Assembly: GCA_050250375.1 (NCBI GenBank)
Contig: JBFWOS010000001.1
Coordinates: forward strand, 1,086,361 to 1,150,360
Length of the DNA: 64,000 nucleotides
Reading direction: 5' to 3'
DNA from: Candidatus Omnitrophota bacterium
Lineage (GTDB): Bacteria > Omnitrophota > Gorgyraeia > Zapsychrales > Zapsychraceae
Below are positions 4,475 through 60,599 of this stretch, in pieces. The stretch's first letter is position 1. The number at the start of each line of letters is the position of its first letter. Both the position numbers and the translations under genes were made by a program. The notes under the pieces were generated by a model, which was not told where the DNA came from, searched no databases, and saw only the letters and a list, made by a program, of their open reading frames with translations.

Positions 4475-5674
4475 TTATTTCATAAAAACCGAATCGTAGA
4501 CCTGTTCGGGTGAAATATCTTTTAAGCACAAATTATCCCGGCACGCCGAGTTGCGATGGTTAAAAACGGACAGACAAGGAGAACACGGGATTCCTGAATA
4601 AAATATTGTAATACGTTCACCGAGCGGCGCAAAGATCTTGGGAGTTTCCGGCCCAAAAAGGACAAATTGCCTGACTTTTGTCAATGCCGCCAGATGCGCC
4701 ATCCCGGAATCGTTCACAACCAAGGCTTTTGACACCGACATGAGGGCCAATAATTCCTGCAATGTTGTCTGCCCCATCAGATTAATGCACCTTTGGGGAT
4801 GATTTTGTGTTTGGGTGATCTGTTTTGCGCGTTCCGCCTTATCTTGCTGCCCGACAATCAACACATAGGTGTTATCGTGCGAAAGGATCTTTGTAACCAG
4901 CCGGGTAAAATACTCTAAAGGCCACTCCCTCAAAGGGATACGCCCTTCTCCCGGACATATCAGATAAATCTCCGCGGTTGCGTCAACCCCCAGGCCATTC
5001 AATTTTTTGTACAGAGATTTTTCCTGCTCTTTCGTATGTTGAAAAGAAACCAGATCAAAGCGGTTATCCTCTTTGAGAATTTCAGGCGACAACTTTTCGT
5101 TCTTTTCGACTGCCGTTCCCATCAGCAAATACATTTCACTGACATGGAGATGCGGATTGTATTGAATCTTATGTGTCAGCAGATCTCCGCGGTAAACCCC
5201 TTCAATTGTATACCGATGAAAGCCGACCCGTTTAAAAGCACCGCTCAGATAAGAAAGAATGGCTGTAAACCTGGAAAAAAATTCTAAATCAATCACGACA
5301 TCAAATTTTTCTTTACGTATCTTCCATAATAAGACAAATACACCTTTTACAAAAGCGGCGGGTGAACTTTCATCAATGGTCCACACATGGACTGGAATGG
5401 ATGGAACGAACACCTCAAATAGTTCCCGGTTACTTTTAAATGTTAAATAATGCAGTTCTGCTTGCGGATATTTTGTGTTCAACTTTTTAAGTAGGGGATA
5501 AGATAAAATGATCGCTCCGAGTTCCGATGGCTTGATGAACAAGATCTTAGACGGATCCTTTAGATCGCGGGAATCCGGAAAAAACAGACTCAATATCTTA
5601 TGCCATAACGTCAATATAAAACAAACGGGAATACCGATCAAATAATCCACCCGTTTCATAAATGTAAATCCCAT
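4475..5674 (-). CDS. Glycosyltransferase family 9 (heptosyltransferase-like)
   Basis: GT9 architecture. C-terminal VVNDSGMAHLAAL matches the conserved (D/N)SGxMHLAAA heptosyltransferase motif. There is an extra Cys-rich C-terminal tail. Confidence 0.7.
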   Translation of the reverse strand: MGFTFMKRVDYLIGIPVCFILTLWHKILSLFFPDSRDLKDPSKILFIKPSELGAIILSYPLLKKLNTKYPQAELHYLTFKSNRELFEVFVPSIPVHVWTIDESSPAAFVKGVFVLLWKIRKEKFDVVIDLEFFSRFTAILSYLSGAFKRVGFHRYTIEGVYRGDLLTHKIQYNPHLHVSEMYLLMGTAVEKNEKLSPEILKEDNRFDLVSFQHTKEQEKSLYKKLNGLGVDATAEIYLICPGEGRIPLREWPLEYFTRLVTKILSHDNTYVLIVGQQDKAERAKQITQTQNHPQRCINLMGQTTLQELLALMSVSKALVVNDSGMAHLAALTKVRQFVLFGPETPKIFAPLGERITIFYSGIPCSPCLSVFNHRNSACRDNLCLKDISPEQVYDSVFMK

Positions 5675-7068: not shown

Positions 7069-7770
7069 TCATTTCTTCCTGAAGATTAATTGAATAAAAT
7101 CAGCCATCGCTGTTCCCACCACTTTAATATTCGCCCCCGTTGGTACTCCTCCTTCACGGACAAAATGCTCAATCGGCACTTCTTTAATCCTGGCTTTTTT
7201 AACACGGGCATTAATAAACACATGTGTATAAAACGCTCCGGCGTGCGAGTCAATCCCTTCCGTTTCTAAGAACTGTTTATGGAACAATTTAAACCCGCAA
7301 TTGATATCTTTAGACTTAATCCCGAAGGCCGCTCCAACGCAAAAGGTATATAATTTCCCTAACATAATCCGGTGGACCGGATCGACCCGCTTTGAACGGT
7401 AACCGGCTATAATGTCATAGTCTCTGGTATAATTGAGCATCGGATCGATGGAGTTAATCTTAATCTGGCCGTCAGAATCCATAAGCAGAATCCATTCGTG
7501 CCTGGATCGCTCAATCCCCGAAATTAACGCCTTTCCATACCCTTTATTTACCGGAAGAGTGACCACCGTAACATGGTTATAAGATTTCCCCAAATCTTTT
7601 AAGATATCAGGTGAGCGGTCAGTACTGCCATCGTCTACCAGGATTATTTCATACCCGGTAATATTCTTGTGGGAATGAAGATGATTGTATACTTCTTCAA
7701 CGGTCTTTCGGATATTGGATTCTTCATTATAAACCGGAAGAATGACAGATAGGGTCACTTGATCGCTCAT
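7069..7770 (-). CDS. Glycosyltransferase family 2, polyprenol-phosphate sugar synthase-like (DPM1/ArnC-like)
   Basis: LSVILPVYNEESNI ... EIILVDDGSTDRS (DxD-type GT-A fold). 233 aa, soluble. 4-nt overlap with the downstream radical SAM gene. Confidence 0.75.
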   Translation of the reverse strand: MSDQVTLSVILPVYNEESNIRKTVEEVYNHLHSHKNITGYEIILVDDGSTDRSPDILKDLGKSYNHVTVVTLPVNKGYGKALISGIERSRHEWILLMDSDGQIKINSIDPMLNYTRDYDIIAGYRSKRVDPVHRIMLGKLYTFCVGAAFGIKSKDINCGFKLFHKQFLETEGIDSHAGAFYTHVFINARVKKARIKEVPIEHFVREGGVPTGANIKVVGTAMADFIQLIFRKK

Positions 7771-40693: not shown

Positions 40694-43600
40694 CTATAGA
40701 CTTTGATGGCATTGAAGCAATACATCCGCTCCTAATTTCCAGCAATGATACAGGTCTCCCAGGAACGCCGCTGGACACGGAGCCCCTTCATTTATTGTAT
40801 AGCCGGGATACCCGGAGAAAGCCGCCCCGCAGGCAGGAGAGAATGGAATCAACTGTGTTGTTTGCTGAATTTTAATCCATTCCCCGTCCTCCGCACAAGC
40901 ACCCGCATCAACTGAATACCCGGAATTACATTGATATTCACATTTTGGAGCCCCGCAGGTAATCACCAGAGATCTGTTCATATTCGTCCCACCCGGGATA
41001 TTCGTATCATCCCCGGAACAATATGCTGCATTGGCCGGTACGCTACCGATACAAATATTCGGGTCGCACACTCCACCGCCGTCATGATATGTATCCGTGC
41101 AGATGTATTCACATTTCGTTCCAACCGTGCACGCAGGCACAACCGTTCGTGGCACGTCGGAATTGCCGGGGATATTAGCATCGTCTCCGGAACATATTGT
41201 TGTGTTTGCAGGCACAGCTCCTATACATTGGTTAAGATTGGTACACCCTGAACCATCGAAATTAAATCCGTCATCACAAATATATTCACATTTTGTTCCA
41301 GCAGTACAAGCTGCCACGACCGTGCGCCCGACATCAGCATTCCCCGGAATATTGATATCATCTCCGGAACAAATCGTCGCATTAATTGGAATAGCCCCTG
41401 TACATATATTTACATCACATGAAGCCCCTCCGAAATTATATCCATCATTACAAATATATTCACATTTAGTTCCAGCCGTACAAGCACCCACCAGAGTACG
41501 GGAAACATCAGAATTGCCCGGGATATTTGTTCCGTCACCGGAACATATGGACGCGTTGGAAGGAGTTGCTCCTGTACAGACATTGACATCACATTGGTTG
41601 GCTCCTCCGTCGTGATATCCGCTGTTGCAAGTATACTCACACAAAGTTACTGTACAAGCCGATACGGTTGTAACCGGCGTATCCGCCAATAATCCGGTGT
41701 TATCTCCCGGACAAATCAGTGCGTTCGCATCAGGTGTTCCTGTACACATGAACGGACGGCACGTGTTCGCGTCTTTGGTAAATCCCGGATCACAGGTGTA
41801 TTCACACTTTGTTCCGCCGGTACATGCATTCGCCACGGTCCGGCCGACATTTAAATTTCCCGGAATGTTTGTATCATCTCCGCTGCATAACGTCGCGTTG
41901 GATGGAACCGTTCCGGTACAAATATTGACGTCACAAACCCCACCGGACTCGTGGAATCCGTCATTACACAAATATTGACAATAAATCGGCAACGTACAAG
42001 CGCCTACGGCCGTGCGGACAACGTCCGAGTTCCCAGGAATTCCGGTATCGTCCCCTGCACAGAGTGTTGCGTTTGACGGAACAGTCCCCGTACAGGCATT
42101 TAAATCACACACCCCGGCGTCATAATTGTATCCGTTGCTGCAGGTATATTCACATTTTGTTCCAATCGTACAGACCGGAACCAAAGTTCGAGCCACATCA
42201 CTGTTCCCAGGAATATTCGTGCCATCCCCCGTACACAATCCCGCATTTGGCGGTACCGCCCCGGTACAGACATTGGCCACACAAATCGTTCCGTTAAAAT
42301 TGAAACCACTGCTGCAGGTATATTCACATTTTGTTCCGGCCGTACAAGCCGCCACCAAGGTTCGGGTAACATCACCATTACCGGGAATATTAATGTTATC
42401 CCCGATACACAAAGTTGCATTAGCCGGCGGCGCTCCGGTACAAACATTGGCATCACATTGATTAATTCCGGCGTCCTTATATCCGCTGTTGCATGTATAT
42501 TCACACATCGTTGCTGTACAGGCTGATACTGTTGTGACCGGCGTATCCGCCAGTAACCCAATATTATCTCCCGGACAGATGGTTGAATTCGAAGCCGGGG
42601 TGCCGATACAATCAAACGTTTCCACCACACAAGCTGTACCGGCGAGATTTAATTCATATCCGGGGTCACAAATGTATTCACACTTGGTCGCTGTACAAGC
42701 GCCAACAAGTGTTAAAGCTAAATTGGCCCTTCCGGTTATATTGGTCCCATCCCCCGCACACAATGTTGCATTAGACGGCGCTGATCCGGTACAAACATTA
42801 ACGTCACACTGGTTAACCCCCGCATCATGATATTCCGTGTTACACCGGTATTCACATTTTGTACCAAACGTACAGGTATTTACCGTCGAAACTGACACAT
42901 CCACGGTCAATCCTGCATTATCTCCAGCACACAGTACAGAATTCGGATCAGGCACTCCGGTACATGCCGGCGCACGACAATCGTTTCCATCAAGAACAAA
43001 ACCGGCATTACATTCATATTCACATTGTGTTCCGGCCGTACACCCTCCTGTAATAACGGCTGTTTTGGGAGTATTCGCCGGCAAATCATCATTATCATTC
43101 AGACAGATTGTGCTATTTGTCGGATCCGGGCCGGTACATAGATAAAGGGGAACACAGGTTATTCCACTGCGGACATAAAACGGCCGGCAGACATGCTCGC
43201 ACTTCACGGGCTGGGTACACGTATCGACTAAGGTATTCGGGGTGTCTGCTGTAAGGCCGGTATCATCCGGTTCGCATATGGTATCAAGATCATAATCGAC
43301 ACAGCACAAATTAGAATGGGCGGGTGCGGGACCGGTACATTGAAACAGAACACAGGCAGTACCATCACTGTAATATCCCGGGTCGCATAAATATTCACAT
43401 TTAGTTCCCGCTGTACATGCGCTGACCGGAGTCCGTGGAGTATCTGCACTTAAACCCGTATCATCGCCGGCACAGAGTGATGAATTAGTTGGAACAGCCC
43501 CGGTACAGACATACGGCACACAACTACCAGCGGAATAATAGTAACCGGCATTACAGCTATATTCACATTTTGTCGGGCCGGTACAAGAAGCAACAAGCGT

Positions 43601-44956
43601 AATCGGAACATCTCCTCTGGTCAGGCCGGCATTATCTCCCGAGCATATTGACGCGTTCGCCGGAGCTGCGCCGGTACAGACAAAAGTACAACTTCCACAG
43701 GTGTACTCATCTCCGCACGGGTTAATACTGCAATCTCCGGTATAATTATATCGGCAGTTTGAACCCGATACCTGACAACCGTCGCTTAAACTGACCGGAC
43801 AATCGGTATAACTGGCACAAGCCGGTGCGATCGCGTAACAGGCCTGAACCGGAGGTTCCAAACAATATCTGCATTCACCGGATGATAATTTTGTATAATC
43901 ATCGCATAAATATTCACATTTTGTTCCGGCCGTACAGGTCGCTACTGAAGAATTCGGTGTATTTGCTGTCAGTCCGGCATTATCTCCCGGGCATAAAGTA
44001 GAATTAATCGGGACCGCGCCGGTACAAGAACAAAAACCGCAATCGGCATTACAACTAAATCCACTGTTGACTGTCCCGCAAGTCTCCGTCCCGGTACAGC
44101 ACCCGTCCCCGCAGACATCGGTCGTGCAATCCCCAGGACAGGTACACTTATTTTCCACTCCGTTACAAATTAAATCCCCGCAAACCGGCACCGCGCAATC
44201 CGACGCACAGCTCACACTATCTTCCGTACCGTCGCATGTTCCGTCCCCGCAGCATGGCGAACAGCTCCCACACGTGCCGCATTGACCGGTGCAATCAAAA
44301 TGGGAATCCCCGCAGGAACACGCCCCGCATTCAACACAGGGATTATACCCCGGCCCGGCCCCGCCGGTGCAGTGTTCAGTACCGACAGCACAAAACCCGT
44401 CACCGCAGACAATCGGACAGGCCCCGCAGTCACTCGTACACATCGGGTCCCCTGTCTCCGGAGCAGGCAACATGCTATCGTTAGATCCGCAGCTTTCCTG
44501 AAAACCCCAATACGTTACGGCATTGGAACACACCCCATCACCGCAAGTCGGACATTCGGCCATAGTCACACCGAGAAATGAACCTCCCAGCACAGCGGCT
44601 TTAAAACTGTTCCACTGGGTCTGAGTCGCCGTGGGAATAAAATATTCTATAATGGACGTGTTGGATATATCCCAGCATTCCGCTTCACCAACATTAGGTG
44701 TTGTGTTGGAGGTATAACTCAAATTAATTCGTAGAGAAGGAATCGTTCCAAGACCTGCATTCCCATCGAGCATATATCCGCCGTTTTCCCATCCATAAAT
44801 CCGGCAGTTGACATTTCCTGACGGGCCGTCATCACAATAACATCCCGTAGCCGGCGGCACACAAGGATCACCGACCGCTGAAAATGCCGCAGAGGCAAAA
44901 CCCAGCATTATGGTTGTAATGAGACCGCCTATTTTTCCCCAAGAACGTTTTTTCAT
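40694..44956 (-). CDS. Giant secreted cysteine-rich repeat protein (about 17 tandem six-Cys modules of roughly 57 aa)
   Basis: N-terminal signal peptide (MKKRSWGKIGGLITTIMLGFASAAFSA). The repeat consensus is roughly CTGxxPxNxxLCxGDxxxIPGNxDVxRTxVxACTxGTKCEYxCxxGYxxDGxxCDVN. Many spurious overlapping ORFs on both strands come from the repetition. Confidence 0.8.
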   Translation of the reverse strand: MKKRSWGKIGGLITTIMLGFASAAFSAVGDPCVPPATGCYCDDGPSGNVNCRIYGWENGGYMLDGNAGLGTIPSLRINLSYTSNTTPNVGEAECWDISNTSIIEYFIPTATQTQWNSFKAAVLGGSFLGVTMAECPTCGDGVCSNAVTYWGFQESCGSNDSMLPAPETGDPMCTSDCGACPIVCGDGFCAVGTEHCTGGAGPGYNPCVECGACSCGDSHFDCTGQCGTCGSCSPCCGDGTCDGTEDSVSCASDCAVPVCGDLICNGVENKCTCPGDCTTDVCGDGCCTGTETCGTVNSGFSCNADCGFCSCTGAVPINSTLCPGDNAGLTANTPNSSVATCTAGTKCEYLCDDYTKLSSGECRYCLEPPVQACYAIAPACASYTDCPVSLSDGCQVSGSNCRYNYTGDCSINPCGDEYTCGSCTFVCTGAAPANASICSGDNAGLTRGDVPITLVASCTGPTKCEYSCNAGYYYSAGSCVPYVCTGAVPTNSSLCAGDDTGLSADTPRTPVSACTAGTKCEYLCDPGYYSDGTACVLFQCTGPAPAHSNLCCVDYDLDTICEPDDTGLTADTPNTLVDTCTQPVKCEHVCRPFYVRSGITCVPLYLCTGPDPTNSTICLNDNDDLPANTPKTAVITGGCTAGTQCEYECNAGFVLDGNDCRAPACTGVPDPNSVLCAGDNAGLTVDVSVSTVNTCTFGTKCEYRCNTEYHDAGVNQCDVNVCTGSAPSNATLCAGDGTNITGRANLALTLVGACTATKCEYICDPGYELNLAGTACVVETFDCIGTPASNSTICPGDNIGLLADTPVTTVSACTATMCEYTCNSGYKDAGINQCDANVCTGAPPANATLCIGDNINIPGNGDVTRTLVAACTAGTKCEYTCSSGFNFNGTICVANVCTGAVPPNAGLCTGDGTNIPGNSDVARTLVPVCTIGTKCEYTCSNGYNYDAGVCDLNACTGTVPSNATLCAGDDTGIPGNSDVVRTAVGACTLPIYCQYLCNDGFHESGGVCDVNICTGTVPSNATLCSGDDTNIPGNLNVGRTVANACTGGTKCEYTCDPGFTKDANTCRPFMCTGTPDANALICPGDNTGLLADTPVTTVSACTVTLCEYTCNSGYHDGGANQCDVNVCTGATPSNASICSGDGTNIPGNSDVSRTLVGACTAGTKCEYICNDGYNFGGASCDVNICTGAIPINATICSGDDINIPGNADVGRTVVAACTAGTKCEYICDDGFNFDGSGCTNLNQCIGAVPANTTICSGDDANIPGNSDVPRTVVPACTVGTKCEYICTDTYHDGGGVCDPNICIGSVPANAAYCSGDDTNIPGGTNMNRSLVITCGAPKCEYQCNSGYSVDAGACAEDGEWIKIQQTTQLIPFSPACGAAFSGYPGYTINEGAPCPAAFLGDLYHCWKLGADVLLQCHQSL
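40950..43750 (-). repeat. Intragenic tandem coding repeats (~170-nt period) inside the giant Cys-rich gene
   Basis: Recurrent nucleotide blocks such as ggtacaaaatgtgaatat / cggaacaaaatgtgaatatac visible every ~170 nt on the plus strand. Confidence 0.7.
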
Positions 44957-44988: not shown

Positions 44989-46170
44989 TCAGCGGGAAGA
45001 ATCCATTTCCATGCCGCGCTTGATTTGATTAATTTCTTTTCTCAAAGAATCAATCTCTTCACTTTGATGTTCGATCAATACCTGCTGTTCTTTAATCGCT
45101 TCAATCATCGGAGCGATCAAATTTCCGTATTTCACATATTTTCTGCCGGACGTTTCATCCGTATGAACCAACTCAGGATAAACTTTTTCGACATCCTGGG
45201 CGGTAATCCCGATATCCTGTTGGCCATTCTCTTTCCAGGTATAACTCAAACCTTCAATTTGTTTAATACCGCTCAACCCTAAAACCGGTTTAAAATTCTC
45301 CTTCAGACGGGCATCCGAAGAATATAAATAAGCATTCGCCGTAACGGTCCCGTTAACATCAAATTCGGTGGTCGGAGCGGCATTTAAAACCCCGATCCTC
45401 CGGGTAGATTGAAGGATCGTCAATAAATGGCTGGCATTATCCGCATCATAAACGTAAAATTGGGCCCCTCCGCCGATGTCACTGTGAACATCAAAACCAC
45501 CGCCAGGAGCTATGGCCAAATCACCGTTGGTCGTGGAAATCGCCGGATTTGCCCCGTTAAAAATCAAATCATTGGTCAACTCAACATCACCGTTGACCTC
45601 CAGCTCCGATGTAGGACTGGTTGTACCGATTCCGACATTTCCCGCACTTGTTATACCCAGACGAAACGCCTCAGCCCCTTCAGCACCGCCCCAAATTGAA
45701 AATCCGTCGGTCAAGCTGGTTTGATGCGCGCGCAATTCCCAAACGGAGTCGGCGGCATCTGTGTTCTGAATCCTGATCGCCGTAAAATCCGTAGCTGCGC
45801 TCTGAACATGCAGTTTGGTCGCCGGAATATTTGTCCCGATGCCTATATCTGCGGTAGACCATGATATGGGATAAAGATCCGTACCGTCCAAAGTCCATTC
45901 ACCAACAGAGTTGGTATAAGAAGTTCCGTCGCAAAACTGTAAATCCCCTGAAACATCAACATACATGGTCCCGGTCGTTGAAACGCTGCAAGCCGGTGGA
46001 GACGCATTCGGGGCCAGTCTTAATGATTGATATACACCAAAGGGAGACGGATAATACGTTGTCATCGTCAAAGTCTCTGCCTGGGCTAAAACCGGCATCA
46101 CCATCAAGGTGATGGTAAGCATCGTGATTCTATATTTTTTTATCATGTCCCTGCCTTTTTGTTGCGTCAA
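44989..46170 (-). CDS. Secreted fibre-like protein with C-terminal peptidase S74 intramolecular chaperone auto-processing domain
   Basis: Signal peptide (MIKKYRITMLTITLMVMPVLAQA). C-terminus SDARLKENFKPVLGLSGIKQIEGLSYTWKE...DIGITAQDVEKVYPELVH...YGNLIAPMIEAIKEQQ matches the SDxRxK...IGxIAQE chaperone-of-endosialidase/tail-fibre domain. Gly/Thr/Ser-rich middle. Confidence 0.7.
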   Translation of the reverse strand: MTQQKGRDMIKKYRITMLTITLMVMPVLAQAETLTMTTYYPSPFGVYQSLRLAPNASPPACSVSTTGTMYVDVSGDLQFCDGTSYTNSVGEWTLDGTDLYPISWSTADIGIGTNIPATKLHVQSAATDFTAIRIQNTDAADSVWELRAHQTSLTDGFSIWGGAEGAEAFRLGITSAGNVGIGTTSPTSELEVNGDVELTNDLIFNGANPAISTTNGDLAIAPGGGFDVHSDIGGGAQFYVYDADNASHLLTILQSTRRIGVLNAAPTTEFDVNGTVTANAYLYSSDARLKENFKPVLGLSGIKQIEGLSYTWKENGQQDIGITAQDVEKVYPELVHTDETSGRKYVKYGNLIAPMIEAIKEQQVLIEHQSEEIDSLRKEINQIKRGMEMDSSR

Positions 46171-46457
46171 AAAAAAACCTATCCTTCATCCAAGAAGAAT
46201 AGGCTTATCATTGACTATGATGCTGGCAACTGGCTATCCTAAAAAAACTAGGACCCTTTAGCTTTGTGCCCCACCTTCTCAGATGGTTTACCTTTTGCAT
46301 GTATTTTCTGTTCTCTAGTATATAAAGCATAACATACGCTCTTTTCATTTGCCAGATTACTTTAACATGGGTAATATTAGGATTGAACAAAAATGTCATA
46401 AATGTTATACTCGGTAAATCTTCGAAAAGTTCATAACTATAATCCTTTCAATAAAAA
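46171..46457. promoter_or_regulatory. Divergent intergenic region (likely promoters for the fibre gene and the cvpA-like gene)
   Basis: 287-nt AT-rich spacer between divergently oriented genes. No specific boxes verified. Confidence 0.3.
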
Positions 46458-52524: not shown

Positions 52525-52827
52525 CTAAATTGCCATGGCGCCATCTTCGCCTGTACGAATCTTGATGACATTCTCCAGAGGAATAACCGCGATTTTACCG
52601 TCACCGGTCGATCCTGTTTTGGCAACCTGCCGGACCATTTCAACAACTTTATCCACCTGGAACTCATCAACGTAAATATCAATCTTTCTTTTGGGCTGAA
52701 GACCGTTGCGGTGCCTTCCGAAACCTTTTGCCTCCGTGACCGTCAGACCGCCGACTCCGGAGTCTTCCAGGACTTTAATCACAGCATTAAATTTTTCTTC
52801 TCTAACGATAATTTCTAACTTTTTCAT
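52525..52827 (-). CDS. P-II (GlnB/GlnK) family signal-transduction protein
   Basis: MKKLEIIVREEKFNAVIKVLEDSGVGGLTVTEAKGFGRH...GDGKIAVIPLENVIKIRTGEDGAMAI. The T-loop is shorter than in canonical GlnB. The start is moved to the second ATG (52827) because the first lies in a conserved leader element. Confidence 0.7.
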   Translation of the reverse strand: MKKLEIIVREEKFNAVIKVLEDSGVGGLTVTEAKGFGRHRNGLQPKRKIDIYVDEFQVDKVVEMVRQVAKTGSTGDGKIAVIPLENVIKIRTGEDGAMAI

Positions 52828-52875
52828 ATGAAACTCCCGTTCATTTTTCTTCATTCTCTAGTTAAGAAGAAAATG
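52828..52875 (-). promoter_or_regulatory. Conserved leader/RBS element (copy 1 of 3) upstream of the P-II gene
   Basis: Plus-strand ctcccgttcatttttcttcattc...aagaagaaaatga is near-identical to the copies at 60000-60045 and 60520-60565. In coding orientation it reads TCATTT...GAATGAAGAAAAATGAACGGGAG then N5 then ATG. Confidence 0.45.
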
Positions 52876-52877
52876 AC

Positions 52878-52908
52878 CTGCCTCGCCTTGCTCGGCAAGG
52901 CGGGCGTG
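52878..52908 (-). terminator. GC-rich hairpin after the KamA-like gene
   Basis: cgccttgc-tcg-gcaaggcg (8-bp stem) within ctgcctcgccttgctcggcaaggcgggcgtggc. On the minus strand it is followed by aggcaggTCATTTTCTTCTT. Confidence 0.5.
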
Positions 52909-52946
52909 GCACGCCATAGAAATGACGGCCTTAAGAAATTTTAAAT

Positions 52947-59086: not shown

Positions 59087-59994
59087 TTACACCACCGGCA
59101 TAATATGTTTACACAATTCTTTTAACCGGCCGTTGACGCCGGTCATTGTCAGATCAGCGGTCTTGGCCATACCGAAACCTTCCACATTGTACGATGATAG
59201 CGTAGTCGCGTACAAAAGCGCTTTATGGAGCGCCTTCTGTGTGACCCTCCCCGTCTGGGACAAATAGCCCATTAACCCGCCGGCGAATGAATCCCCGGCC
59301 CCGGTCGGGTCAACCACGGTTTCCACAGGATAAGCCGAAAAAGCAAAATGATGCTGATCACTGTAAAACATCACGCCGTTTTCTCCCTTTTTAATGACAA
59401 CCATCCCCGGCCCCATACGGCGGATTGCCTTGGCCGCCTTATGGAGATTTGTCTCTTCCGTCAACAACTTAGCCTCGCGGTCATTCACGATCATCAGATG
59501 AACCTTCTTCATTAAATTTTTAACAGACTTGTTTTTAATATCAATCCAAAGATTCATCGTATCCATACCGATGAATTTCGGGTTGCTCATTAATTTAAGG
59601 AAACTCATCTGGATATCCGGGTCAAAATTCGCCAAAAATACATTCGGTATTTTCTTTTGTTCAGCGGCGACTTGAGGCGTGTATTGCTCCAGAACTCCCA
59701 ACACCGTCGTATGTGTGATGGCTGTGTTCAAATCTTCCTTTTTATATTCTCCCGTCCAGGAAAACGTCTTCCCGTCAGAGATGGTCACCGAATCCAGGTT
59801 AATCCCTTTTTTCTTGAAAAACTTCAGATGCTTATCAGGAAAGTCTTTTCCAATGACACTCACCAGGTTCACCGGTGTAAACAGCCGGGCACAGACAGAG
59901 AAATGACTGGCCGAACCTCCCAGAAGGGATTCCTTTTTTCCTGAAGGTGTTACAAGGTTATCTAAAGCGACTGTACCGATAGTGATTAAACTCA
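59087..59994 (-). CDS. PfkB-family carbohydrate kinase
   Basis: VVDPTGAGDSFAGGLMGYL (DTxGAGDxF signature) and N-terminal GG motif region. Start moved to the Met of MSLITIG (59994) because the upstream 9 codons belong to the conserved leader element. Confidence 0.75.
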
Positions 59995-60042
59995 TATTAC
60001 TCTCCCGTTCATTTTTCATCATTCCGTTTTGAAAGAAATGAA
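59995..60042 (-). promoter_or_regulatory. Conserved leader/RBS element (copy 2 of 3) upstream of the PfkB kinase gene
   Basis: tctcccgttcatttttcatcattccgttttgaaagaaatgaacc. In coding orientation GGTTCATTTCTTTC...GAATGATGAAAAATGAACGGGAGAGTAATATG. GTTCATTT and AAATGAAC can pair, sequestering the region next to the GGGAG SD. Confidence 0.45.
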
Positions 60043-60071
60043 CCTGCCTCGCTCGGCAAGGCGGGCGAGGC
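60043..60071 (-). terminator. GC-rich hairpin after the YjbQ-like gene (homologous to the 52878-52908 hairpin)
   Basis: gcctcgc-tcggcaaggcggg-cgaggc within cctgcctcgctcggcaaggcgggcgaggc. On the minus strand it is followed by aggTTCATTTCTTTC. Confidence 0.45.
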
Positions 60072-60093
60072 TAGCCCTCACTAATTTTTAAAA

Positions 60094-60516
60094 TCAAGGG
60101 CTGCCGATTATTTTGATTAACACCCGTTTTTTCCGGCGGCCGTCGAATTCACCGTAGAATATTTGTTCCCAGGGGCCGAAATCCAACTTCCCGTTGGTTA
60201 CCGCAACAACCACTTCCCGCCCCATGACCTGTCTTTTCAAATGGGCATCTGCGTTGTCTTCACCGGTGTCATTGTGACGATATTGGTCAACCGGGGCATG
60301 CGGGGCCAATTTCTCAAGCCACTTGTCATAATCCTGCAATAATCCCCGTTCGTCATCATTGATATAAACGCTGGCGGAAATATGCATGGCGTTAACGAGA
60401 CACAGCCCCTCTTTGATCCCGCTTTTATCAATCGCTTTCTGAACATCCGGCGTGATATTGAGATACTCACGCCTTGTCTGCGTATTAAACCACAACTCTT
60501 CCCGGTAACTTTTCAT
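60094..60516 (-). CDS. YjbQ/UPF0047 family protein
   Basis: From [10 protein letters not shown]: ...[37 protein letters not shown]...[51 protein letters not shown] matches the UPF0047 pattern. Start moved to 60516. Confidence 0.65.
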
Positions 60517-60599
60517 CTGTTCTCCCGTTCGTCTTTCATTATTTCCTTTTAGAAGGAAATGAACGAGGCCCGCTTCTGGATTCAAAATCCGGAGCGGCC
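60517..60599 (-). promoter_or_regulatory. Conserved leader/RBS element (copy 3, more diverged) plus small hairpin after the GT-C gene
   Basis: tctcccgttcgtctttcattatttccttttagaaggaaatgaacg. In coding orientation a tiny overlapping uORF ATGAAAGACGAACGGGAGAACAGATGA (MKDERENR, stop overlapping the gene ATG). Hairpin ggattcaaaatcc at 60575-60590. Confidence 0.4.

Follow-up and report, generated by a model that had tools for sequence, protein, structure and literature searches.

The 64,000-nt window of the Candidatus Omnitrophota contig JBFWOS010000001.1 analysed here (the window is the whole stretch of DNA) contains three copies of a short RNA element that belongs to a real, previously uncatalogued family of structured leader and intercistronic RNAs from a clade of Omnitrophota. 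The leader is about 85 nt long, folds into two hairpins (P1 and P2) and ends in a ribosome-binding site (RBS). In total, 37 distinct copies from several Omnitrophota genomes and metagenomes were aligned. All of them are co-oriented with a start codon, which follows the Shine-Dalgarno (SD) motif GGGAG at a distance of a few nucleotides (mostly 5-10), and none was found in any other context in the roughly 0.5 Mb of Omnitrophota sequence covered by our census of orientation and position. P1 and P2 are both supported by compensatory changes. From these sequence features we infer a function at the RNA level, in which the copies would act in cis as mRNA leaders, also between cistrons, gate translation and spread by copying within genomes; we regard the chances of this combined reading as evenly balanced. 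The initial annotation of the window had already suggested a family of cis-regulatory leaders, and the 37 co-oriented copies with their two covarying hairpins support that suggestion. It had named a lack of further copies and of covariation as grounds for assuming chance similarity or a local duplication; many copies and clear covariation were found.

Distribution of the element

The three copies in the window (copies C, A and B; Table 1) lie on the minus strand, as do all large open reading frames (ORFs) of the window, and each is placed 5-6 nt before an ATG, that of the YjbQ, PfkB kinase and P-II gene, respectively. This confirms the earlier observation of a repeated element before genes, with one layout in all three intergenic stretches: a GC-rich hairpin, (G)UUCAUUU, a short loop, GGAAUGA/AGGAAAU and a purine run, then AUGAACGGGAG (GACGAACGGGAG in copy C), 5-6 nt and the ATG. 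In a repeat search of the window, the core of the copies forms one repeat family (D10, 74-79% identity over 38 nt) and the GC hairpin common to copies A and B (CGCCCGCCTTGCCGAGCRAGGC) forms another (D13, 87% identity over 31 nt). The 12-mer AATGAACGGGAG is exact at A and B only and has two mismatches in C; all three sites are on the minus strand just before start codons. Copy C had been taken for a diverged third copy, but it lies nearest of the three to the consensus of the family, the derived copies being A and B. No further copies were found in the 64 kb or in 6.5 kb beyond it, either with a three-copy nhmmer profile or with the covariance model described below (filters off).

Copies elsewhere were collected with two patterns and a covariance model (CM). 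The first pattern, which fixed only TCATTT and GAAANANGAACGGGAG, was scanned against one genome per species (185,579 species) and gave 27 matches. Thirteen of these also share the segments that the pattern left free, namely a GC hairpin ending in CGAGCC, the linker UCG (GAGCCUCG), the proximal strand GGAAAUGA and an ATG soon after GGGAG; the other 14 have none of these and are chance matches. Because so loose a pattern recovers 13 loci that agree in unconstrained parts as well, the similarity is not due to chance. Twelve of the 13 are in metagenome-assembled genomes (MAGs) of Omnitrophota (six in GWA2_47_8, four in SMAG_U7936, two in others), and the thirteenth, locus L018, is in a MAG labelled as an uncultured member of the Planctomycetales. 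L018 carries two copies (4501-4591 and 7627-7699), so that either the bin is mislabelled or the family reaches a related lineage of the Planctomycetes-Verrucomicrobia-Chlamydiae group. The second pattern fixed the flanks GAGCCTCG ... AATGAACGGGAG with a free middle and was scanned against metagenome contigs; it gave 50 loci, about 33 of which are true members, some of them duplicating genome matches. The CM, built from 29 copies, recovered all members found by pattern and added some found by the model only: one at 7627-7699 of L018, one in L002 that has P1 only and, in the sister genome L102, three orthologous copies. About nine or more copies are present in one genome, GWA2_47_8. Two scans of viral contigs returned only an unrelated phage 17-mer and chance matches, which rules out a link of the element to phages.

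The family has no match in Rfam 15. At the gathering threshold, a scan of the whole window returned only a c-di-GMP-I-GGC riboswitch at another site (Table 1), and permissive scans of the three window copies and of the canonical copy L022 gave only noise (E>0.1, far below gathering scores). A search of the literature on riboswitches, RNA motifs and SD sequences of Omnitrophota (Omnitrophica) found nothing on this element.

The element precedes dozens of functionally diverse genes in other Omnitrophota genomes. Outside the window, they encode ribosomal protein L27, acyl carrier protein (ACP), MetE, ATP synthase subunit b, UDP-glucose dehydrogenase, three single-domain response regulators, a porin, lipoproteins, TIGR04073-like proteins, DUF3309 proteins (three times), a DUF1328 protein, a Phd antitoxin, a glutathione S-transferase, a band-7 protein, a glycosyltransferase and an ABC ATPase; functional labels of proteins outside the Pfam runs are our own reading of the sequences. 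Envelope proteins, stress proteins and small membrane proteins make up many of the products of these genes. Where the element lies within an operon, as in the window, P1 begins 0-30 nt from the upstream stop codon.

Structure and covariation of the two hairpins

In the sense direction, the consensus of P1 reads AAGGCCG-(stem top of about 3-15 bp, loop)-CG-A-GCC, followed by the linker UCG and then by UUCAUUUCCUU-(loop of 3-9)-AAGGAAAUGA RRAAAAAUGAACGGGAG N5-10 AUG. P1 is a GC-rich hairpin of variable length on a conserved base, GGCCG...CG-A-GCC, with a bulged A. Its top is wholly different among copies, even in one genome, with pairing kept (8-20 bp) and the base and bulged A constant. P2 is an AU-rich hairpin formed by UCAUUUCC and GGAAAUGA, and the purine-rich tail RRAAAAAUGAACGGGAG that follows it carries the SD. 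In the window, the TAA stop codon of the TPR gene upstream of copy C (60602-60600) overlaps the conserved AAGGCCG.

In the alignment of the 37 copies, which was fitted to the model's own structure, P1 and P2 are paired in 93.4% of cells. Changes on both sides occur in 15 of the 19 pairs, and none of 500 shuffles reaches the observed values; when the partner was slid by 1-3 columns, pairing fell to 41-53%. Swaps of whole stems with pairing kept are visible in the raw sequences, as in L070 (UCAUCCCGCC/GGCGGGAUGA), L018 at 7627 (UUCCACCA/UGGCGGAA), L055 (CCAU/AUGG) and both L064 and L079 (UUUUCUC/GAGAAAA), and in P1, where CCUCGCC/GGCGAGG of L065 corresponds to CUUCGCC/GGCGAAG of L073. UAG or UAA occurs in about half of all P1 loops (for example in L002, L006, L016, L019, L022, L028, L055, L060, L079, L085 and L086). 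At several loci, the mechanically called upstream ORF runs into the P1 loop before stopping, which may be chance or a preference in the loop sequence.

P1 as part of the leader

The initial annotation had read the GC hairpin as the terminator of the upstream gene. A hairpin is indeed present, and a lenient terminator scan flags those of copies A and B, in which a GC stem is followed by AGGTTCATTT or AGGTCATTTT; because of these hits, the two hairpins may have weak terminator activity. The bases directly 3' of P1, however, are UCG and form no U-tract. After the hairpin we find UCGUUCAUUU in canonical copies and AGGUUCAUUU in copy A, and the positions that would be proximal in a U-tract are not U, whereas the same loci and genomes do contain canonical (L-shaped) terminators, which have long U-tracts. 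Terminator-like sites in the region are no more numerous than in shuffled sequences. Across about 250 kb of Omnitrophota sequence, hairpins with the P1 base motif GGCCG...CG(A/G)GCC nearly always have the remainder of the element behind them, the exceptions being one copy with linker and SD but no P2 and a few chance matches that form no hairpin.

The order of sites at individual loci also bears on the role of P1. In L070, a canonical terminator (1693-1662) is followed by a sigma-70-like promoter (10/12 matches, 1651-1623) and then by P1; in L022, a promoter-like site, TTTGCA-18-TACAAT, lies upstream of P1; L002 has weaker promoter-like matches, which follow a canonical terminator upstream of P1; and L012 and L004 resemble these three by eye. 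Because promoter-like sites lie upstream of P1, we regard it as a part of the leader and probably not merely as the terminator of the preceding gene. Where such a site is present (L070, L022), P1, P2 and tail would all be located in the 5' untranslated region. That the element is nothing but an ordinary intrinsic terminator next to an unrelated RBS, similar among loci only through the common needs of terminators and SD sequences, is highly unlikely. The hits of the lenient scan and the usual position of P1 close to the upstream stop codon would fit such an arrangement, but the missing U-tract, the promoter-like sites upstream, the terminator counts in shuffles and the joint conservation of bulged-A P1 base, linker, P2 and tail do not.

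A predicted second register at the Shine-Dalgarno sequence

A pairing near the SD (GTTCATTT/AAATGAAC) had been proposed as an RBS-sequestering switch. The helix in question joins GUUCAUUU to AAAUGAAC; in canonical copies it is longer, pairing CCUCGUUCAUUU with AAAUGAACGGG, and then takes in the first G's of the SD; the strands of the SD-occluding helix are CCUCGUUCAU and AUGAACGGG. This distal helix, which is possible in 94.7% of cells, draws on UCAUUU in competition with P2 and on CCU in competition with the P1 base. When the segment from linker to SD is folded alone, the structure with the distal helix is favoured by a median of 3.3 kcal/mol, and the median probability that GAACGGGAG is fully unpaired is 0.002. 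When the folded segment also contains P1 and 25 nt of coding sequence, some copies have one register as their minimum-energy fold and other copies have the other. An anti-SD-like CUCG:CGGG pairing persists in variants without P2 (the second copy in L002 and the YjbQ copy in L102), and this survival is the best hint that occlusion of the SD matters.

In our proposal, the element sets translation initiation at the downstream gene or acts as a gate for it, and probably also affects mRNA stability. CCUCGUUCAUUU begins in the final bases of P1, crosses the linker and reaches into the 5' strand of P2. In a first register it would pair with the proximal strand, such that P2 is formed and the tail and SD are free, and in a second register it would pair with the distal tail AAAUGAACGGG, such that the first G's of the SD are occluded. 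The outcome would be a two-register hairpin abutting P1, with temperature, a trans-acting factor and co-transcriptional kinetics as candidate triggers. A two-register, SD-gating leader of this kind appears to be the most likely mechanism. The three-way conservation of 5' strand, proximal strand and distal tail is as would be expected of a bistable element, and it is in part an artefact of how the copies were collected.

Gain, loss and remodelling among relatives

Loci syntenic with the window (TPR-YjbQ-PfkB-...-MgtE-...-P-II-S21) were compared in relatives whose kinase orthologues are 95, 80, 78, 76, 74, 66 and 61% identical. Between the window and the closest of these, the sister genome, the flanks are about 95% identical and the hairpin regions are rearranged. 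In copy A, 23 nt that are extra in the pairwise alignment of the window with L102 create the GC palindrome. In copy B, the palindrome is part of a 49-nt block flanked by GTCATTT direct repeats (Table 1), and the corresponding leader of the sister genome, which does not have the block, is without P1 altogether. The indels of A and B concern the palindrome only, and insertion and slippage deletion look alike. For copy C, no alignment is obtained from the stop codon to the tail; here the sister genome has two different GC hairpins and no P2, but the same tail GGAAAAUGAACGGGAG.

These comparisons suggest that the A/B palindrome reflects a recent insertion, conversion or deletion event, and that the family is gained, lost and remodelled quickly, with the SD-bearing tail as its most persistent part. 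Copies also bear signatures of their genome, as in the resemblance of A to B in the window and in the GGCCGTCCG and GGCCGUCCG stems of P1 in GWA2_47_8, which points to copying within genomes. The earlier suggestion of a small mobile repeat is right in part, for the GC palindrome of A and B with its clean indel. Strict association with start codons in combination with rapid turnover is unusual. In the relative at 80% identity (L104/L105, 4431-9900), the TPR and kinase genes are separated by an insertion of about 5 kb that includes a gene with an AbiEii toxin domain, and YjbQ has the opposite orientation; with this insertion and inversion, the site of copies C and A is a rearrangement hot spot.

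Evaluation of the gating model and its alternatives

Several observations weigh against a translation-gating leader. Conservation of tail and linker is overestimated, because most copies were gathered with patterns that fixed parts of the sequence. Either hairpin can be missing in individual copies: the YjbQ leader of L102 and the second copy in L002 have P1 only, and the P-II leader of L102 has P2 only, so that no single architecture is obligatory. At the syntenic loci, the element is found only in the 95% sister genome (L102/L103) and is absent in the six others (61-80%), which have short spacers with AGGAGG-type SDs; this absence agrees equally well with a repeat that is dispensable or selfish and with a regulator. 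The distal SD-occluding helix shows no compensatory change at all, its mismatches in L011, L016 and L018 being uncompensated, and in folds that take in P1 and 25 nt of coding sequence the SD has a mean unpaired probability of 0.45, a value that lies between clearly closed and clearly open. Moreover, copies A and B have GGCAGG in place of GAGCCUCG; as this GGCAGG is unable to pair with GGGAG, sequestration of the SD is not a feature of all copies. The pairing put forward initially thus stands as possible and energetically favoured, but it does not covary and does not reach the SD in A and B.

A comparison with known SD-occluding leaders and RNA thermometers such as ROSE and fourU shows a similar balance. 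They share with the element a multi-hairpin 5' leader just before the start codon, an AU-rich or anti-SD-like strand that can pair at the SD, and upstream hairpins as structural helpers. In contrast, the element has no match among Rfam thermometers, leaves the start codon outside the helix and precedes many unrelated genes that are not heat-shock genes. Its AU-rich helix next to the SD is favoured in silico without covariation, and its SD pairing is partial, and absent in A and B.

An unlikely alternative is a selfish or neutral dispersed repeat, a palindrome similar to repetitive extragenic palindromic (REP) sequences or miniature inverted-repeat transposable elements, spread by transposition or gene conversion and with only incidental effects on the gene. 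Its main argument is the lability of the element between relatives: the element is missing at orthologous loci of genomes at 80% PfkB identity or less, the palindromes of A and B are clean indels of 23 and 49 nt relative to the sister genome (with a GTCATTT direct repeat at B), C is unalignable from stop codon to tail, and copies of one genome share idiosyncrasies. Mycobacterial interspersed repetitive units (MIRUs), the enterobacterial repetitive intergenic consensus (ERIC) and REP-containing bacterial interspersed mosaic (BIME) elements, and the Correia elements of Neisseria are dispersed intercistronic or intergenic repeats that affect neighbouring genes. Like the element, they are short palindromic repeats that lie between co-directional operon genes, are co-transcribed, occur in several to many copies per genome and are gained or lost between close relatives; MIRUs are, in addition, co-oriented with the flanking genes and carry translation signals. 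The copies described here differ in being neither tandem nor present in both orientations, in supplying an SD at a fixed distance from the start codon in every case, and in having no small ORF that spans the stop and start codons. Their constant position before start codons, together with P1 tops that are free to vary yet remain paired and a P2 and tail that are nearly constant across genera, argues for function and for purifying selection on the RNA as opposed to recent copying. No terminal inverted repeats or transposase were seen, although no genome-wide search for RAYT/TnpA was made, and no copy was found in viral contigs. The selfish and the functional readings can be reconciled if a regulatory module is what is being copied. 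One particular form of the cis-leader reading, in which tail, linker and bulged-A P1 base form the operator of a regulon and bind a trans-acting RNA-binding protein or small RNA, is distinctly unlikely. The conservation of tail and P1 base does exceed the needs of pairing, and both the copy number in GWA2_47_8 and the frequency of envelope, stress and small membrane proteins would suit a regulon. However, the search patterns inflate this conservation, and no candidate factor emerged. L27, ACP, MetE and ATP synthase subunit b also belong to the gene set, and because near-identical 45-nt sites are unlikely to have independent origins, copying would still be needed.

The appearance of the element, with two hairpins of variable stem length, highly conserved joining and tail nucleotides, many copies per genome, a patchy distribution and no known family match, could also suggest that the conserved junction nucleotides build the core of a small-molecule riboswitch, where they would bind a ligand, or of a self-cleaving or processing RNA, where they would be catalytic. 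In its length of about 85 nt, its covarying stems, its conserved joining regions and a 3' end overlapping the RBS, it does resemble the riboswitch-type leaders in Rfam; it differs from them in having no CM match and in not being retained at orthologous loci. An aptamer or ribozyme core would not tolerate the absence of P1 or P2 seen in otherwise intact copies, the downstream genes have no common metabolic theme, and no pseudoknot or other tertiary covariation was seen. We consider this explanation extremely unlikely, and a riboswitch in particular was rejected on account of the incoherent gene set and the dispensable individual hairpins. Close to negligible is the probability of a promoter or transcription-factor operator acting at the DNA level through TCATTTCC/GGAAATGA repeats. 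An inverted repeat together with a direct repeat of GGAAATGA, at a spacing of about 10 bp and directly upstream of genes, would be in keeping with it, but the arms of P2 swap in a compensatory manner around a loop of about 3-9 nt, as fits an RNA hairpin and not a fixed protein site or a -35/-10 spacing, and transcription that began within the element would produce hardly any leader. A sigma-70 promoter inside the element was rejected: no -35/-10 hexamer pair is present between P1 and the three ATGs, and the variable loop would break the spacing. Also rejected was a leader peptide or N-terminal extension (MKKNERE), which the initial annotation had raised as an upstream ORF or in-frame extension. 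The upstream AUG lies inside the P2 stem without an SD of its own and is replaced in copy C (AUA/ACG) and in L018 at 7627; the frame is not kept, because the spacing to the main ATG varies, and the second codon varies while wobble positions are invariant. Pairing of the tail with the 3' end of 16S rRNA beyond GGAG was unconvincing when judged against the standard bacterial 3' end, which may not be that of Omnitrophota.

A bolder form of the copied leader is a portable "plug-in" module of translational control, a bistable RNA that alternates between the P2 register and the SD-occluding one, is stacked on P1 and is copied precisely before start codons, thereby rewiring arbitrary genes. Such a module might respond to a signal or factor, or act as an RNA-processing site; we regard it as a long shot.

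Features of the window

The positions of the three copies and of other features are listed in Table 1. The nearest homologues of the PfkB kinase that bear a source name are annotated as Candidatus Omnitrophota. A second YjbQ paralogue (L001, 190-606), about 3.3 kb past the end of the window, follows a gene with a tRNA-binding domain after a 3-nt spacer and has no leader element. The weak promoter-like site near copy B overlaps the end of a lysine-2,3-aminomutase-like gene and would start transcription approximately at the AAGGCCG that precedes this copy.

Table 1 Positions of the leader copies, their parts and other features in the window
Feature	Position	Strand	Description	Evidence
Copy C	60602-60514	minus	Leader of YjbQ/UPF0047 gene, ATG 60516-60514	CM score 70.4 bits, fold, gene call, Pfam YjbQ
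Copy C, P1	60599-60567	minus		
Copy C, linker	60566-60563	minus	UCG(U)	
Copy C, P2	60562-60539	minus		
Copy C, tail	60538-60522	minus	UGAAAGACGAACGGGAG	
Copy C, SD	60526-60522	minus	GGGAG	
Copy A	60071-59993	minus	Leader of PfkB-family kinase gene, ATG 59995-59993	CM score 62.5 bits
Copy A, GC palindrome	60071-60046	minus	In P1 position	
Copy A, P2	60041-60035, 60025-60019	minus	Paired strands	
Copy A, tail	60018-60002	minus	UGAAAAAUGAACGGGAG	
Copy A, SD	60006-60002	minus		
Copy B	52905-52825	minus	Leader of P-II gene, ATG 52827-52825	CM score 62.8 bits, Pfam P-II
Copy B, GC palindrome	52905-52880	minus	With bulged A	
Copy B, P2	52876-52868, 52857-52851	minus	Paired strands	
Copy B, tail	52850-52834	minus	AGAAAAAUGAACGGGAG	
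Copy B, SD	52838-52834	minus		
49-nt block with GC palindrome	52878-52926	minus	In window, not in sister P-II leader	Pairwise alignment; D13 links to copy A
Weak promoter-like site	52965-52938	minus	TTATCA-16-TAAAAT	9/12 matches
rpsU promoter	52441-52414	minus	TTTACA-16-TATAAT	Near-consensus
c-di-GMP-I-GGC riboswitch (RF03167)	46221-46301	minus	Directly upstream of Peptidase_S74 gene	59.5 bits, gathering score 59
Peptidase_S74 gene	44989-46170		393-aa protein, endosialidase chaperone domain	
Cys-rich protein gene	40694-44956		1420 aa, repeats of about 58 aa	Weak Sushi-repeat match
DNA repeats D1-D7	40890-44070		Many repeats of 168-177 nt	

Downstream of the P-II gene, rpsU (S21) has a promoter of its own and a leader that ends in AAAGGUGGUGA. 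This leader and its promoter are conserved in the syntenic loci L102, L104, L107 and L110, even where the repeated element is missing, and the promoter is less clear in L108; the conserved sequence may represent an S21 autoregulatory leader. Elsewhere in the window, the gene that follows the Peptidase_S74 gene contains the D1-D7 repeats, which encode its Cys-rich units, and its product is probably a giant surface protein.

Implications

Omnitrophota are uncultivated and, to our knowledge, almost nothing is known of how they control gene expression. The element would be the first lineage-specific post-transcriptional control element described for them, a covariation-supported RNA that supplies the RBS for many unrelated genes, including those for L27, ACP, P-II, porins and small stress-type membrane proteins. 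It also affects annotation, as a spurious upstream ATG inside the element extends ORFs, as in the ORF-list entries 59087-60022 and 52525-52854. Should two-register SD gating and copying both prove true, the element would be a natural portable RBS insulator or switch, of relevance to synthetic biology. If the plug-in module were true, it would constitute a new class of mobile cis-regulatory RNA in a phylum without cultured members.

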